The translations under genes were made by a program, and so were the position numbers. Below the pieces are notes generated by a model that was given only the letters and a program-made list of their open reading frames with translations, was not told where the DNA came from and ran no database searches. From Scyliorhinus canicula (lineage: Eukaryota): a stretch of 64,000 nt of DNA. The stretch is taken from NCBI RefSeq assembly GCF_902713615.1, contig NC_052159.1, positions 33,841,709 to 33,905,708 on the forward strand, written 5' to 3'. Within the stretch, counting starts at the first letter, position 1, and each line of letters begins with the position of its first letter. Below are positions 1,304 to 64,000 of the stretch, piece by piece.

Positions 1304-3787
1304 TGCTTTTTTTTTAATAAATATTTTATTGAGGTATTTTTTGGTATTATAACAACAACACAATAAACAATGTACATGAAACTATAAACATAGTCCAAAA
1401 GCCGTCTCCCTCCCTCACAGGTCCCACCTTTATTAACCCTCTACTCTAAGATAAACTAACCCCTCACCTACTTCTGCTAACGATTAATTTTCTGCGAAGA
1501 AGTCGACGAACGGTTGCCGCCTCCGGGTGAACCCTAACAGTGACCCTCTCAAGGCGAACTTGATTTTCTCCAGAGAATGCTAGCCATGGCCGATAACCAG
1601 GTCTCTGACTTCGGGGGCTTTGAGTCCCTCCAAGCTAATAGCATCCATCTCCGGGCTACCAGGGAAACAAAGGCCAGAACGTCTGCCTCTTTCTCGTCCT
1701 GGATTCCCGGGTCTTCCGACACTCCAAACATTGCCACCTCTGGACTCAGCGCCACCCTTGTTTTTAACACCGTGGTCATGACACCTGCAAACCCCTGCCA
1801 GAATCCCCTAAGCTTCGGACATGCCCAGAACATATGGACATGGTTCGCTGGTCCTCATGCACATTTGTACACCTGTCTTCCACCCCAAAGAATCTGCTCA
1901 TCCGGGCCACTGTCATGTGAGCCCGATGAACGACCTTAAATTGTATCAGGCTGAGCCTGGCACATGTTGCGGACGCGTTGACTCTACTCAACGCGTCCAC
2001 CCATAGACCATTCTCTATCTCTCCTCCCAGCTCCTCGACCCACTTGCGCTTCAGCTCCTCGGTCTGCGTCTCCTCTGACCCCATAAGTTCCTTGTAAATG
2101 TCAGAGACGCTCCCTTCTCCTACCCACCCTCTGGAAACTACCCTGTCCTAAATCCCCCTTAGCGGTAGGAGCGGGAAGGTTGACACCTGTTTACGTAGGA
2201 AGTCCCGCACCTGCAGATACCTGAATTTGTTTCCCCTCGCCAACCCAAACTTCTCCTCCAGCGCCCTCGTACACGGAAAGCTCCCTTCTATAAACATATC
2301 CCCCATCCTCTCAATCCCTGCTCTCTGCCATATCCGGAATCCCCCCATCCATACTTCCCGGGGCAAACCGGTGATTATTACAGATTGGGGACCAAACCGA
2401 TGCTCCATCTGCTCCCACATGTCTCCTCCATTGCCCCCAGACTCTCCGGGCCGCCGCCACCACAGGGCTGGTGGAGTACCGTGCCGGCGGGAATGGCAGA
2501 GGCGCAGTTACCAACGCCCCAAACTGGTGCCCTAGCATGAAGCCGCCTCCATACGCTCCCATGCCGACCCCTCCCCCACCATCCCGATCATGGCTATATT
2601 CGCTGTCCAATAATAGTTACTCAAATTTGGCAGCATCAGCATCTCCCCGACTCCGCTCAAGCATTACCTTCCTTACCCGCGGGGTCTTGCCCGCCCAAAC
2701 AAAGCCAGAGATCACTTTGTTGACCTGTTTAAAAAAGGACCGCGGAATGAAGATGGGGAGACATTAAAACACGAACAGGAATCTCGGGAGGACCGTCATC
2801 TTCACCGTCTGCACCCTCACAGCTAATGACAACGGGAGCACGATCCATCTCAGAAAATGGTCCTTCATTTGGTCTACTAGTCAGGCCAGATTTAATTTAT
2901 GCAGCCGGTCCCATTCCCGCACCACTTGAATGCCTAGGTACCTAAAGCTTCCCTCTACTAATCTAAACGGCAGCTCCCCAATCAACTGTCCTGTCCCCTC
3001 GCCAGGACCGCAAACATCTCACTTTTCCCCATATTTAGCTTATACCCTGAAAACCGGCCAAATTCCCTGAGAATCCTCATGATTTCTTCCATCCTGTCTA
3101 ATGGTTCCGATACATACAGAAGCAGGTCATCTGCATAGAGCGTGACTCTGTGCTCCACCCCACCCCCCGGACCAGCCCCTTGAGGCTCTCAGAGCAATTG
3201 CCAACACCTCTATAACTAGCGCGAACAACAGTGGGGAGAGGGGGCACCCCTGTCTCGTCCTCCGGTGCAGTCTAAAATAGTCCAATGTTGTCCTATTCGT
3301 CCGTACACTTGCCACAGGAGCCTGATACAGCACCTTGACCCAGTCAATAATGCCCCACCCGAATCCGAACAATCCCAATACCTCCCACAGATAATCTCAT
3401 TCTACCCGATCGAAAGCCTTTTCTTCATCCATTGCGACCACTACCTCCACCTCCCTACCTTCCGGAGGTATCATGATCACATTTAACAACCTTCTTACAT
3501 TGGACACCAACTGCCTACCCTTAACAAACCCCGTCTGGTCCACCCCAGTAACGTCCGGAACACAATGCTCTATCCTGGAGGACAAAGTCTCGGCCAGCAG
3601 TTTGGCGTCCACATTCAACAGGGATATCGGCATGCAGGACCCACACAACTCCAGGTTCTTGTCCCGCTTCAGAATCAGCGAAATCGTGGCCTGTGGCATC
3701 GTCGGAGGCAGCACCCCTCTGTCCCTTGCCTCATTGAACATCCTCATTAACACCGGCCCCAATATCCCAGAGAACGTTTAATAAAAC

Positions 3788-4140
3788 GGGGCAGCACGGT
3801 AGCATGGTGGTTAGCATAAATGCTTCACAGCTCCAGGGTCCCAGGTTCGATTCGCGGCTGGGTCACTGTCTGTGTGGAGTCTGCACGTCCTCCCCGTGTG
3901 TGCGTGGGTTTCCTCCGGGTGCTCCGGTTTCCTCCCACAGTCCAAAGATGTGCGGGTTAGGTGGATTGGCCATGCTAAATTGCCCGTAGTGTCCTAAAAA
4001 GTAAGGTTAAGGCGGGGGGGGGTTGTTGGGTTACGGGTATAGGGTGGATATGTGGGTTTGAGTAGGGCGATCATTGCTCGGCACAACATCGAGGGCCGAA
4101 GGGCCTGTTCTGTGCTGTACTGTTCTATGTTCTATGTTCT
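3788..4140 (+). mobile_element. Full-length HE1-type V-SINE with CR1-like tail
   Basis: tRNA-like head (GGTTCGATTC B-box), V-core GGGTTTCCTCCGGGTGCTCCGGTTTCCTCCCACAGTCCAAAGA, (TTCTATG)n tail, and TAAAAC on both sides (3782-3787, 4140-4145). Confidence 0.95.
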
Positions 4141-58421: not shown

Positions 58422-59390
58422 TGTAGCCACCTAAGATGGACACTGGGCTAACAAGATGGAGAACTGCTAAGACTGCAGGGAAAAAGCAGTTTAGCCAAGA
58501 CAAGCAGTCTGCAAAGACTGATTAGCATTTTGCAAGCAGCAAAACTAGTTTCTGTCTGGCCAGGTGGAAGATCTCAAACCAAAGGTGTTAATAGCAAAAC
58601 GCTTTGCATATTAATGAGGCAATCCAGATCTGGGCACACACAATGGCAACATTTGGGTTTGAATAGATACTTTAAGTGGATGTCCAGACAGAGCGGCACC
58701 AGAAGTATCCACCATAGAGACCGCCCCCTCCATCGAGGAGAGACCCTCACATTGGGGGAATTCAAAAGATATCGATTAGGATCTGATCCAATCGATACCT
58801 GAAGGTGAAAGCCCGCCCCAAAAAAGGCACGGACATTGGGGCCCTATAAAGATAGACCCCCACACATGGTCCTGTCTGTTGTTTTCGTGCTCCGGCTTTG
58901 ACTTCGACCCAGAACTTCGACTTGTATCCTGACTCCAGCCGTTGAGCAACAGCCGCCGAACCGTAAGTGACAATACGACGCTCGCTACGCGAACCAGCCC
59001 CACTAGACCCCCAGCGACCAGCACACTCTCTGAAGGTTACACACCAAGATCGAAACGAAGACCTCGCTCCCTGACCTTGCCTGTTCCTGTTTAGTTAAGT
59101 ATTCTGATTGCTTAGTTTAGTTGTAGCTTAGTCCCTTAGCGTGTGCATGCGTATTTATTATATTTGTAATAATAAATACTAATCGTTTGGAACTTACTAA
59201 TCGGTGTGTCGTTTTATTACTTTGAACCTAACCTTGGAATATTTGTGAGGTGTCTAGATACGGCACCTGGCGACTCCCGAGCTGAAAATACATACATAGA
59301 GCCTAGCAGTGTTAAGCACACGGCCTTTAAACGGAGGCGTGTTAATACACTCCAATAAACGCAAATTACACTCAAGTAAAACGTGCAACA
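58422..59390 (+). repeat. 5' LTR (969 bp)
   Basis: TGTAGC...GCAACA inverted termini, TATAAA at ~58844, AATAAA at 59171 and 59354. It interrupts a SINE after CCAT. Confidence 0.88.
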
Positions 59391-59395
59391 TTTAG

Positions 59396-59412
59396 TGGCG
59401 ACTCCGGTGGGA
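59396..59412 (+). promoter_or_regulatory. Primer-binding site, tRNA-Arg(UCU)
   Basis: TGGCGACTCCGGTGGGA is complementary (16/17) to the recalled vertebrate tRNA-Arg-TCT 3' end TCCCACCAGAGTCG-CCA. It starts 5 nt after the LTR's terminal CA. Confidence 0.8.
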
Positions 59413-59702
59413 AGCGGTTATAAGTAGTACCCCCACTCTGTCGAAGACCCTGAAATTTGAATTAGAAATCTGGTAAAGAAAAAGCAAAGAAATCACAAAT
59501 ATTCAAGGTGTTCAAAGGAATAAACGTAATTCGGAAGTGTGTTTAGTGCATGCGTACTAACAGGGTTGTAAGGAAAACCTGAAAGCATTTTTGTTGCGAC
59601 AAACTTTCGGTTGTTTTGTGAACGGAACATAGCGTAAGCCTTACCCGTTTCGTGAGACATAACCTCAACACCCCCTGTTCCAAATTAAAGTGAGTCAGAA
59701 AA

Positions 59703-61448
59703 ATGGCCATGCAGGCAATGGAACGCCTCATGAACCCAGAACGGTTTGTGGTTGCAGCGACCAGCAGTAGCCGAGTAGGTCAGTGTCCCGTGTGGGAGCT
59801 GGAACTCCGCAAGTATCTGCAAGGGAAGGGATGGCCCCTTTGGAAAGAGTTTTGTTTGAATGAGGAGACAGGTCCCGGAAGTATAGGACATACTTGGTGG
59901 GAGAACCTCTCTCAAATTCACAAGAAAAATATGAGTAAAGCACGTAAGCCGATGGCGATTGTGTCCTGTTTGGCACAATTGCGAGGCACAGAGGAGGTCG
60001 TTCAGACGCTCCGGGCAGAATTAGAGGAGAGAAATAGGATGAGTAAAGTGGATGTCAGGGACATCGAGAAAGAGAATACGGATCTTAGAGGGAAGTTGGC
60101 AGAGAAAGGTAGAAAGGTGGATGATGCCAAGAGGGCACATCAGTCTTGTCTAGCCCATCTCAGCAGTTCCCAGACCCAGTACGAAAAGGCCTATCAGGAC
60201 GTGCACCGTGCCGTCCTGATAAGAGAAGAATCAGAGAAGCAGGTGGAGGCTTTGCAGAGGCAATGCTCTGACCTTAAAGCAGCTTTGAGAGCACTCCATG
60301 CTGCCACCACAGAACAAAGACAGAGTACTGTAGACCATGCGAAATGCAGGAAGCAGATTGCGGAGCTGCAATCGCTGCTTTCAGTACAAAATGGGTTTCA
60401 AAGCACATTTGGAACGCAGTTAGATGAGGAGAATGCCCCAGACTGGAAAGAGTTAAGTGAGACAGCGCAGCGTTATGTTCAGGGGACATGTGCGCCAGCA
60501 GCGCAGCAGAAAAGACAAGCACCCCAACCCCCCACAGATCAGATAATTACCGTACCAATGAATCCAGTCACCACCCAACGGAAAGCGACCACAGAAGGCG
60601 CACCCGATATTACTTACACCATCCCCTTAACTGTAACCCAACTAAGGGACGCGTGTGAAAAGATCACTCCGTTTCTCCCCACCGCAGACCCCCACCAGTT
60701 TTTCGCAAAGGTAAAGCAACAGGCAACCATGTACGGCCTGGACGAAAGAGAGCAGGTTAAACTCACAGTTCTGAGTTTGGACCAATCGGTTGTAGCAGCC
60801 CTCCCCGACCCACAGAACGTTGGCGGAGGCACCCTAGAGGAAATGCACACCTCCATTTTAGATGCCATAGGGTATAATCGAGGTGACCCCGTAGAAGGAC
60901 TTAATAAGTGCCGACAGAAGAAAACCGAGCACCCCACAGCATTCGCAGGAAGGCTGTGGATCCATTTTAACGCAGTATTTGGCGATTTAAATAGAGCCCA
61001 TTTGAACCGTGAAAACATGGTTAAATGGACGCGCACCATAATTTCTCATGCAACAGAAGCAGGACAGAGCGCTTGCAACAGCTATGACCCCTCAGAGGAA
61101 GCCCATAATGAGAAGTGGGTCCTGAAAAGATTGTCCCGCGCTTGGGAGCAATCAGTTCAGGGCAGAGGCAAAGTGAAATCCCCAGAAGAAGCTCAGGCTG
61201 CAGCAGACATACAGGCAGTGAGAGAGCACCAAAACCCCGCGTGGGTGAATGAAGGAAAGAGCAGCCCTCCACAGAAGTCGCAGGAATGCTACAACTGTGG
61301 CCAGTTAGGACATTGGGCTAAGGAATGTAATGGACCCCAGAGATCACAGAGAGGCCAGCAGACAGGCACTCTGAACAGGAATAAAACAAAACCAATTCAC
61401 AGTATAGGCGTACAGTCAGGACCCACCAATGTGGACGGAACGAACTGA
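59703..61448 (+). CDS. gag: Gag polyprotein, 581 aa (N-terminal coiled coil, capsid with MHR-like motif, one CCHC knuckle)
   Basis: Intact ORF. Heptad-rich aa ~90-228, LNKCRQKKTEHPTAFAGRL (60900-60957) and CYNCGQLGHWAKEC (61287-61328). Confidence 0.93.
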   Translation: MAMQAMERLMNPERFVVAATSSSRVGQCPVWELELRKYLQGKGWPLWKEFCLNEETGPGSIGHTWWENLSQIHKKNMSKARKPMAIVSCLAQLRGTEEVVQTLRAELEERNRMSKVDVRDIEKENTDLRGKLAEKGRKVDDAKRAHQSCLAHLSSSQTQYEKAYQDVHRAVLIREESEKQVEALQRQCSDLKAALRALHAATTEQRQSTVDHAKCRKQIAELQSLLSVQNGFQSTFGTQLDEENAPDWKELSETAQRYVQGTCAPAAQQKRQAPQPPTDQIITVPMNPVTTQRKATTEGAPDITYTIPLTVTQLRDACEKITPFLPTADPHQFFAKVKQQATMYGLDEREQVKLTVLSLDQSVVAALPDPQNVGGGTLEEMHTSILDAIGYNRGDPVEGLNKCRQKKTEHPTAFAGRLWIHFNAVFGDLNRAHLNRENMVKWTRTIISHATEAGQSACNSYDPSEEAHNEKWVLKRLSRAWEQSVQGRGKVKSPEEAQAAADIQAVREHQNPAWVNEGKSSPPQKSQECYNCGQLGHWAKECNGPQRSQRGQQTGTLNRNKTKPIHSIGVQSGPTNVDGTN

Positions 61449-64000
61449 CGGTGTTCGGGCTCCCCCACTTGGGTCTGTGACACACTATGGGATCCATCCG
61501 GAAGACCGGTAGTCACGGCAAAAGTAAGAGGGAAGCCCATAGAGTTACTTTGGGACACAGGAGGGTCCCGCACCACGATTAACTCCACAACCACGGCACA
61601 GGCAGACACGTGGCCGACCACCTCCACCATCACACTTAGCGGGTTCACAGGACACTCGCAGCAGGGACATATCACAGCACCCGTAGCGATCCAGCTAGGG
61701 AACATTTCCACCAAACACCCAGTAGTATTAGTAAATCTTCCCCGGACAGCAGAACACATCCTAGGGATAGATTTTATGAATGCCCATAGCCTGTCGTTCG
61801 ACCCAGTGAACCAGTGTGTCTGGCGAATGGCAAGATCGGACAGAGCACCCGCTACCCTCACAGTAGGAGACTACGCTAATAGGATTAGCGTAGTAGGAGA
61901 CTACTCATTTGACTTGACTACACTAAACACGGACAGACAAGTTAAGGCAGTATTAAACAAACATAGGACAGCATTTGCCAGTCACCGGCACGACTGTGGC
62001 AGAATGACTGGACAAATTCACGTTACCGGACCTGACCCCAGACCACAGAAACAGTACAGATTTCCCCTAGAAGCAGAGGGAGAAATAGAGAAAGTGATAG
62101 GTAGCTTATTGGAGCAAGGTGTTCTTAGAACAGTAGCCTCGACCAATAATGCCCCTATTTGGCCAGTGAGAAAGCCCGACGGATCATGGCGTCTGACCAT
62201 TGATTATCGGGAACTCAATAAAGTAACCCCAGCAGTAGCCCCCACGGTAGCTACAAGTCCCGAGACCATGCTCAAGCAGGGACTCAACTCCAAATATTTC
62301 ACGGTATTGGACATTAGCAATGGCTTCTGGTCAATACCATTGGCAAAGGCGTGCCAGTACAAATTTGCCTTCACTTTCAAAGCTCAACAGTATACGTGGA
62401 CATGCCTTCCACAAGGATTCCACAATTCCCCCTCCATTTTCCACCGACAGCTGGCGAATGGTTTAGAAAAATTTTCCCGCCCCGAATGTCTGGTACAGTA
62501 TGTAGACGACCTACTACTGCAGACAGACACAAAGGCAGAGCACATTACGCTTCTGGCCGAACTCCTGGAACTTTTAACCTCAATTGGCTGTAAAGTTAAC
62601 CCAAGAAAGGCCCAGATTTTGGAACACAAAGTGATGTATTTGGGAACAGTCATCACACATGGCAAACGCGAGATCGAATTCAAAAGAATTGATTCAATTG
62701 TCAAATTGCCCCTTCCCCAGAATGTTTCAGCCCTCCGGTCGTTCTTAGGACTGGTTGGTTATTGTCGGAACCACATCGACGGATTTGCGACAAAAGCCGC
62801 CCCACTCTCAGACCTCCTTAAGAAAGGAGCCCCCTGGGAATGGCTTCCGCAGCATACAGAGTTAAAGAAAGCCCTTAGCGCAGCACCCGCGCTACAAGTC
62901 CCAGACCAACTTTCCCCATATGCAATAGAGGTAGCGAGCACAGATCTGACCCTCTCGGCCGTGTTACTTCAGGAACGGCACGAGCAGCTAAGACCAGTGG
63001 CTTATGCCTCCCGACTTTTAGACCCAGTGGAACAAGGATTTTCAGCCCGCGAGAGGCACCTCCTTGCAGTCTTCTGGGCAGTACAATACTTTTCTTACAT
63101 TACCGGACTCAACCCCATCACCATTTTGACCGAGCACACCCCCACACAGTTACTCCTAGACGGTCGACTGAAGGACGGTTCAGTTAGCCAGATTAGGGCA
63201 GCTAGGTGGACACTACTCTTACAAGGACGGGATATTACGGTAAAACGGACCCGCACACACACATTTTTAGCCGACAACCTCCAATACCCAGGACAGCCCC
63301 ATGATTGTGAAATTGTAGCCCCCTTACATAACACAGGACCCTTCATAGCAAAGACACCCCCCAGGAAGATAGGGAACCCCAGACAAAGCCCCCAACACAC
63401 AGACACGTGTGGACCACTACGGATATACGTGGACGGTTCATCCACGGTTTTAAATGGTGAGCGTATCACAGGATGCGGCATCTATGTCGAGGACGCGCAG
63501 GGGCGCGCTCTCGAAGAGAGAGCATTAAAATTACCAGGACACTTAGGCACGCAGGCAGCAGAGCTCGCGGCCATAGCATATATAGTGGACCACCCCGATT
63601 CTTTCCCCAGCCCAGCGGACATATATTCGGACAGTCTATATGTCTGCAATAGTTTAACCGATTTTCTGCCCCTGTGGAGGACACGAGGTTTTGTCTCCGC
63701 AGATGGGAAACCTCTTCCATCAGCCCCTTTACTCCAACACATTTTAGAGAAAGCGAAGGACAGGGCCTTCGGCATTATAAAAGTGAGAAGCCACCATAGG
63801 TCATCCCCCCCTGGGAATGTAAAAGCCGACGCACTGGCTAAGGCAGGTTCCAGGCGAGGCCACTTGTGGACACCCCCAGCTAGCGCACCAGCTAGCGCCC
63901 CTGTGAGCGCAGTTCAAGTCTCACAAACAGATATCAGGGATTTAGCTGAAGCACAGAAGCAGGATGAGGATCTCAGGGAGATTTTCAAAGGCAACTTTGT
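61449..64000 (+). CDS. pol: Pol polyprotein (protease, RT, degenerate RNase H tether, RNase H), in frame with gag, partial
   Basis: Manually translated, 850 codons with no stop: LLWDTGGSRTTI, HILGIDF, NAPIWPVRKPDGSWRLTIDYRELNK, LDISNGFWSIPL, LPQGFHNSP, QYVDDLL (YVDD at 62499-62510), LRSFLGLVGYCR, RPVAYASRLL, IYVDGSS, QAAELAA, IYSDSLY and GNVKADALA. Confidence 0.95.

Follow-up and report, generated by a model that had tools for sequence, protein, structure and literature searches.

A conserved UGA-CGG gag-pol junction in an endogenous retrovirus family of Scyliorhinus canicula: a candidate type II readthrough signal with a predicted downstream stem-loop

The last 5.6 kb of a 64,000-nt stretch of the Scyliorhinus canicula genome (NCBI RefSeq assembly GCF_902713615.1, contig NC_052159.1, forward strand positions 33,841,709 to 33,905,708; the whole stretch is referred to here as the window) is the 5' part of one long terminal repeat (LTR) element, an endogenous retrovirus (ERV) in which gag and pol lie in one frame with a single TGA between them that is followed by CGG. 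It is rather probable that the Gag-Pol protein of this element and its family is made by programmed readthrough of the UGA, to which the conserved CGG and a predicted long stem-loop would contribute. Taken by itself, readthrough of the UGA is very likely on the evidence of sequence conservation and, given readthrough, the stem-loop is likely to act as its stimulator, by analogy with two viral systems that use the same hexanucleotide.

The junction reads AAC TGA CGG TGT TCG at 61443-61457. The pro-pol frame, which is that of gag, reopens at 61449, is open through the end of the window and extends over 1404 codons in the genome, and the catalytic Asp of the protease is the 36th codon past the TGA (61554). 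There is no in-frame ATG between the TGA and the protease DTG, the single ATG in that interval (61487) being out of frame, and no strict X XXY YYZ slippery heptamer occurs within 61296-61556. An initial annotation of the window had described the junction sequence, the shared frame, the DTG 36 codons on and the lack of an intervening ATG and of a slippery heptamer, and these were confirmed from the sequence with the ATG taken as in-frame, but it had placed the stop right after the nucleocapsid knuckle, when in fact 39 codons separate the knuckle's last Cys from the TGA.

The stop codon across genomic copies

The in-frame TGA is confirmed as a family trait and is not a private mutation. A search of the genome with the exact flanks and a free middle triplet gave 859 matches, and the TGA must be considered beyond chance because 845 of them carry it, the other 14 young copies holding another triplet at the stop position; TGA-CGG was present in all of the top 30 DNA matches, the window among them. 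Selection on the stop itself was avoided by choosing 30 further copies by the protease active-site pattern alone, and 29 of these have TGA exactly 36 codons ahead of the Asp, followed by CGG in 26 cases and by a CpG-decayed triplet in three, whilst in the 30th TGA-CGG is recovered once a deletion is allowed. The trait is also an old one. Three old subfamilies (C, D and E), 57-76% identical to the window, were represented by a collection of 75 loci, of which five failed to align, and TGA was found in 57 of the 70 alignable copies and another triplet in 13. The figures were 22 of 25 copies for subfamily E (72-76% identical), 14 of 22 alignable copies for D (63-69%; two rows duplicate one sequence) and 21 of 23 alignable copies for C (57-66%). 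No non-TGA triplet occurs more than twice in any of these groups and, while the Gag C-terminus varies among subfamilies, stop and frame are constant. The initial annotation had raised the prospect of a majority of copies with a sense codon at 61446-61448, and this did not materialise.

Among the best 150 of 6489 protease-match candidates no open frame is longer than 1419 codons, 25 being exactly 1411 (Pol alone), and therefore none of the 150 fuses Gag and Pol in one frame. When fused Gag-Pol relatives were sought among longer proteins there were eight matches, none of them close, which is weak evidence. It might be argued that the TGA arose by nonsense mutation in a defective lineage, which a helper having Gag and Pol fused then copied in trans, and the copies with other triplets, 14 young and 13 old, would be in keeping with this. 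However, no alternative triplet is seen more than twice in an old group, the best 150 protease matches include no fused frame, and the stop predates subfamilies that are 57-100% identical and have kept their pol frames open; the explanation is very improbable and can be regarded as already largely refuted. A metagenome scan yielded 80 loci at no more than 36% identity, none with a usable junction. Contigs of seven sequencing runs were compared with the region; there was no joint within 61340-61640 in four of the runs, and the 40 rows listed out of 74 did not differ at 61446-61451. Contigs cannot show absence and neither observation is used as evidence.

Constraint on the codon after the stop

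With TGA fixed and the next triplet left free the genome gave 925 matches, of which 845 have CGG, and of the nine that lack it among the first 100 listed eight are CpG transitions. The family thus has UGA followed by CGG at an in-frame junction, as in the UGACGG subtype of Beier-Grimm type II readthrough, in which an extended stem-loop comes after a spacer of 7-12 nt. Of 258 pol codons with four- or six-fold degeneracy, 11 have the window's triplet as the commonest one in every one of the five other groups. CGG at codon +1 is among these 11, and no other of the 26 Arg codons, nor any other of the 32 CpG-bearing codons, is so kept. Codons +1 to +12 have the top synonymous identity of 35 non-overlapping pol windows (0.72; mean 0.59, standard deviation 0.07) and rank 6 among 425 sliding windows, the excess coming from groups that are at least 70% identical.

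A predicted stem-loop downstream of the stop

Positions at the junction are numbered with the U of UGA as +1. Folding predicts that 61457-61538 form one interrupted hairpin of 82 nt (-32.9 kcal/mol; z -2.54, 1 of 200 shuffles), and of 59 folding windows along gag-pol the one at +11 is lowest in both energy and z, two others also reaching z -3. The initial annotation had suggested a 3' pairing of CTGTGAC (61475-61481) with GTCACGG (61512-61518) around a CCGG-AAGA-CCGG hairpin (61498-61509). All of these elements are present and the helix forms the middle part of the 82-nt hairpin, but the inner hairpin was rejected, as it is not conserved and one pair holds in 10 of 32 sequences, and the 81-nt stretch originally proposed is no better than shuffles (z +0.80), 61457-61538 being the significant one.

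The extent to which pairing might follow from coding was controlled by 40 random synonymous recodings per copy, applied to the first gap-free distinct copies of each group up to a maximum of eight. The pairing of the long hairpin was exceeded in no more than 5% of these controls in 8/8 A, 8/8 A2 and 8/8 B copies, that is in 24 out of 24 young copies, and in 5/8 E and 4/6 F copies, from subfamilies at 70-75% identity; E and F are the independent part of this test because the statistic was defined on young groups. Some paired positions have changed on both sides. At +33/+70 groups A, A2, B and F have U-A, whereas 23 of the 25 E copies have C-G, and pair +24/+78, which is U-A or U-G in most groups, is C-G in 12 of 20 D copies. 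With relatedness ignored, the covariation score was reached in 0/500 shuffles and pairs altered on both sides numbered 11 as against 8.4 in shuffles (55/500).

Several observations weigh against the stem-loop. The fold is window-dependent, with z of -0.05, -1.51 and -0.43 when started from +4 and the positive value already given for the 81-nt stretch, and the +12 start was picked after a fold and the literature had been seen. In 7/8 D and 4/4 C copies, which belong to the oldest groups and are heavily decayed, the long hairpin is not above the synonymous controls. Each compensatory change represents one or two events, and the covariation score takes no account of relatedness. RNAalifold, run on 32 and on 34 copies, did not recover the long hairpin or anything else meaningful. 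Some pairs are broken in whole subfamilies, namely +34/+69 in 24 of 25 E copies, +25/+77 in 23 of 25 E and 7 of 8 F copies, and +30/+73 and +32/+71 in subfamily C, and the register of the basal helix shifts among groups. Codons +13 to +36, which carry the 3' arm, have synonymous identities of 0.56 and 0.55 against the mean of 0.59 and hence no excess. Finally, Tca2 is a precedent for the failure in reporters of a gag-UGA-pol junction that has a predicted structure (PMC2194720). The alignment of copies envisaged in the initial annotation has borne out conservation of TGA-CGG; for the stem it gave compensatory changes at the two pairs described, broken pairs elsewhere and no consensus fold. The 82-nt stem-loop is best described as a fair prediction and not as a demonstrated element.

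Three of these points lend some weight to the suggestion that readthrough is real and comes from the UGA-CGG-UGY context only, the hairpin being a by-product of Ser-Pro/Arg-Gly codons or a packaging element. There is no RNAalifold consensus fold, the 3' arm is without synonymous conservation and the two oldest groups keep TGA-CGG yet the hairpin was not recovered there. On the other hand, when A, A2, B and most E and F copies are recoded without change to the protein the hairpin is lost, and the +12 start agrees with the tested cases of Venezuelan equine encephalitis virus (VEEV) and Colorado tick fever virus (CTFV). According to the accessible text of a 2026 review, UGACGG in these two viruses needs an extended stem-loop from +12 (126 and 78 nt, respectively) that begins with consecutive G-C pairs, and gives less than 1% readthrough without it (PMC13517186). 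By analogy with them the hairpin is, given readthrough, the likely stimulator here, and action of the context alone is rather unlikely.

Other structures were considered. The minimum-energy fold from +4 is a proximal hairpin from +6, in which 84% of cells pair, with no compensatory change and no gain over shuffles; it was rejected on these grounds and also because it would sit inside the ribosome. A compact H-type pseudoknot, sought with a two-stem search (5+5 bp) for which a gammaretroviral control gave matches, was not found in 5/5 young and 2/2 F copies, and weak G-U-containing matches were obtained in three E copies and one D copy. Some copies of the two oldest subfamilies (junctions L116, L142 and L148) fold in a forked manner, with two hairpins closed by a basal helix at +12, which recalls the CTFV element; these copies are heavily decayed.

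Expression of Pol

Since the family has undergone repeated amplification with Pol open over 1411 codons and a fixed stop ahead of it, it needs a route past the stop. Frameshifting can be dismissed because gag and pol share a frame and there is no slippery site, and UGA suppression would appear to be the simplest route to Pol, in agreement with the initial annotation, whose proposal, itself drawn from sequence, is supported by the presence of TGA throughout the family. By extension from VEEV and CTFV, a ribosome with the UGA in its A site would have the stem at its mRNA entry channel and termination would be delayed. A few percent of ribosomes would insert a near-cognate residue, which in UGA readthrough is Trp, Arg or Cys, and continue into protease, reverse transcriptase (RT), RNase H and integrase, and the readthrough fraction would set the Gag:Gag-Pol ratio.

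An alternative is that Pol comes from its own spliced or internally started mRNA, in the manner of foamy viruses, and that the TGA is an ordinary Gag terminator. The lineage lies outside the gamma/epsilon group, and among solved structures Pol matches foamy virus Pr125Pol best (E 2.4e-67, as against 7.4e-63 for an MLV-type RT), both of which are compatible with such a route. It is nevertheless improbable, in that an in-frame ATG is absent and the first AG past the stop, which has no pyrimidine tract, falls at codon 19, while no near-cognate start precedes codon 23, so that a Pol made by splicing or reinitiation would lack the protease N-terminus (xSPTWxCxxxWDxxGRP), a stretch that all subfamilies retain; the fixed CGG and the constant frame would also be left unexplained. 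Recoding of the UGA as selenocysteine, or its editing by ADAR to give a Trp codon, is less probable still. The UGA and the Arg-Cys after it are conserved (UxC possible) and a long duplex lies nearby, but at E 1 neither a selenocysteine insertion sequence (SECIS) nor any other relevant Rfam match was found in the window's copy, whether at the junction locus or in its 3' part, with the proviso that Rfam may miss a novel SECIS, and the A of the UGA is outside the predicted duplex and in a GAC context, which is a poor ADAR site. Readthrough of the UGA as such accordingly stays the preferred account of how Pol is expressed.

The element and its lineage

The features of the element are collected in Table 1. 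The domain order (protease, RT, tether, RNase H, integrase), the LTRs, the primer-binding site (PBS), the CCHC-containing gag and the target duplication are those of Retroviridae, and the copy in the window is judged to be young because its LTRs are 98.3% identical and CCAT is present on both flanks.

Table 1. Features of the element. Positions are those of the window, except for the last row, in which they are those of the named loci.
Feature	Position	Strand	Basis or remark
5' LTR	58422..59390	+	TG...CA ends; 3' LTR beyond the window, 98.3% identity across 969 nt; CCAT 4-bp target duplication
Primer-binding site, likely tRNA-Arg (tRNA identity inferred)	59396..59413	+	Sequence
gag, 581 aa	59703..61448	+	ATG at 59703 to TGA at 61446-61448
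Single CCHC zinc knuckle in Gag	61287..61328	+	Pfam zf-CCHC, E 1.8e-7
TGA-CGG, Beier-Grimm type II readthrough hexanucleotide	61446..61451	+	Definition in PMC13517186
8-nt spacer between stop and predicted stem	61449..61456	+	Predicted fold
Predicted extended stem-loop, +12 to +93, three G-C pairs first; includes the 61475-61481/61512-61518 helix	61457..61538	+	Folding
pro-pol in the gag frame: protease, RT (YVDD), tether, RNase H; integrase past the window	61449..64000	+	Pfam
Protease active site DTG, codons 36-38 counted from the stop	61554..61562	+	Translation, Pfam
Frame of about 114 aa at the place of env	L031 3811-4263; L189 1094-1519; L190 1162-1587		

No env-sized frame was seen in the 3' part of any of the four copies read, and there was no Pfam env match, so that the element reads as secondarily env-less, like other amplified ERVs. 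At the place of env three of the four copies have a frame that gives about 114 aa when read from its Met; a signal peptide is likely, there is one membrane helix, and no Pfam match passed the cut-off. Past the integrase C-terminal domain Pol has an acidic extension of about 175 aa rich in Ser, Thr, Pro and Asp (L031, about 1240-1772), and the copy in the window has, between pol and the 3' LTR, a further LTR of the family inserted in inverted orientation (89-90% identical; L031, about 2600-3860). By eye, the N-terminal third of Gag (window 59970-60420) contains a long Glu/Lys/Gln-rich stretch that is predicted to be coiled-coil-like, which is unusual for an orthoretroviral matrix. In the leader the 18-nt PBS (59396-59413) is followed 42 bases on by a second block of 12 nt (59456-59467), and in rare copies (L191, about 1498-1545; L193, minus strand, about 1498-1545) the stretch from PBS to block is an unbroken complement of a tRNA 3' half, spanning the T arm to an anticodon loop with TCT (Arg). 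This arrangement suggests that primer and template make contact a second time at the anticodon arm and that copying now and then reads on into the primer; no tRNA gene matching the PBS was confirmed by ARAGORN in eight loci.

The position of the family was examined with a quick maximum-likelihood tree whose root is unsure. A 22-row clade (support 100) that includes all gammaretroviral contigs and a viral contig having UGAAGA (L097) excludes the window, which places the family outside the gamma/epsilon group. The nearest full-length Pols are models annotated as 'protein NYNRIN-like' in frogs and coelacanth (40-45% identity overall, 52-57% in RT), and in the tree the NYNRIN-like ERVs and the window form one clade (SH-aLRT 95), the comparison covering their protein models. 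The most identical protein match, at 66% over a short part, is a Mustelus annotation. The NYNRIN-like models begin three residues ahead of the DTG. The coelacanth model P0005 has Gln-Gly-Cys where the window reads stop-Arg-Cys, 35 residues ahead of the DTG, and a stop followed by Arg or Gly and then Cys recurs in the window (61446-61454), in L097 and in the gammaretroviral contig L093.

The best reference-virus match is a contig of 10,688 nt (L092; 33% identity, E 1e-111), which we take to be snakehead retrovirus (SnRV) from its UAGGGC hexanucleotide, as in the review, and its length. It resembles the window in having an in-frame stop, 32 codons ahead of the Asp, and differs in that the stop is UAG-GGC, env is present and it is not sister to the window's family in the tree. 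Contig positions 2202-2290 are predicted to form a forked stem-loop, opened by G-C pairs, from +12 past the UAG (z -1.71, 9/200 shuffles). SnRV-like ERVs, although the best reference match, form no exclusive clade with the window; they occur in elephant shark, in an account whose accessible text does not discuss the junction (PMC4422223). Lokiretroviruses are marked by an F-protein-like env and an RT in the Loki clade; no env was found in the copies read, the tree was built from sequences other than named Loki ones, and cartilaginous fishes are unlisted as hosts in the accessible text of PMC7947760. The foamy-like or spumavirus arrangement, with a separate-frame Pol having its own start and with no CCHC box (features as given in PMC8278194), is not that of the window. 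Nor is the gammaretroviral type III signal, UAG-GGR being absent and a compact H-type pseudoknot not having been found in young copies by the two-stem search.

Comparison with known readthrough systems

Stop suppression at the gag-pol boundary is textbook retrovirology, and in Moloney murine leukaemia virus (MoMLV), as in the window, the two genes share a frame, the stop lies between the nucleocapsid knuckle and the protease DTG and a structure begins at +12. The window differs in having UGA-CGG in place of UAG-GGR, 36 codons in place of 27 from stop to Asp and an RT outside the gamma/epsilon group, and the compact H-type pseudoknot was not found in its young copies by the two-stem search. A UGA at this position has precedents in fish and frog retroviruses. 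The 2026 review lists SSSV (UGAAGA), ZFERV (UGACGA) and RMEV (UGAAGU), none of them verified (PMC13517186), and XtERV-S has a gag/pol TGA (PMC8278194). All four share the in-frame UGA with the window; the first three, as listed in the review, lack the exact UGACGG and no structure is described for them, and XtERV-S differs further in having YIDD, dUTPase, env and a tRNA-Ser PBS and no CCHC box (PMC8278194). The type of stop is the less surprising because UGA had already been reported in these four viruses, and the contrast drawn in the initial annotation with retroviruses that use UAG, while correct in that UAG is absent here, is correspondingly weaker. L097 comes close to the window, with stop-Arg-Cys and the Asp 35 codons on, and departs from it in an RT that falls among gamma/epsilon-like sequences and in the lack of a significant fold from +12 (z +1.2). 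In the accessible text of the review readthrough outside gammaretroviruses is called unverified and the cis elements of fish and frog retroviruses unclear (PMC13517186).

The hexanucleotide itself is named there for alphaviruses, coltiviruses and plant viruses only, with structures of 78-126 nt from +12 (PMC13517186), and the accessible text of PMC3159437 agrees on the UGACGG systems and their structures. Segment 9 of the Colorado tick fever coltivirus and the nsP3/nsP4 junction of VEEV share with the window UGA-CGG, the 8-nt spacer and a stem-loop from +12 that opens with G-C pairs, its size being 82 nt here as against 78 in CTFV and 126 in VEEV, and CTFV (UGA CGG UGU UGG) and the window (UGA CGG UGU UCG) are identical in the first 10 bases. 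The structure here differs from both in being one long interrupted hairpin, which is predicted. Since these virus groups are unrelated, the likeness is to be seen as convergence. A combination of UGA-CGG and an extended stem-loop in a retrovirus outside the gamma/epsilon group was not found in the literature covered, which did not extend to supplements, Repbase, Dfam or subscription journals, where the stop may be noted; as far as their accessible text goes, and in the terms looked up, PMC9040795, PMC7947760, PMC10435555 and PMC9447858 do not address the gag/pol junction. Whether a type II signal made up of UGA-CGG, an 8-nt spacer and a stem-loop of about 80 nt drives Pol throughout the lineage's history as recorded here, and is the first in a reverse-transcribing element and of independent origin, is a question on which the chances appear evenly balanced.

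If it does, retroviruses, alphaviruses, coltiviruses and tobra/furoviruses have come to the same recoding solution and, taken together with SnRV (UAG) and with XtERV-S and SSSV (UGA), this would argue that retroviral pol was by default expressed through stop suppression from early on, its stimulators being interchangeable. Pipelines misread this clade when they take an in-frame stop as the sign of a dead ERV, or when they begin the protein at the next ATG. As a high-copy ERV, with more than 900 copies, the family offers a concrete 90-nt readthrough candidate with thousands of natural variants. By analogy with the systems considered, the purpose of the junction would be that of MoMLV and its signal that of CTFV and VEEV, making it a precise candidate for a type II element in a deep retroviral lineage.

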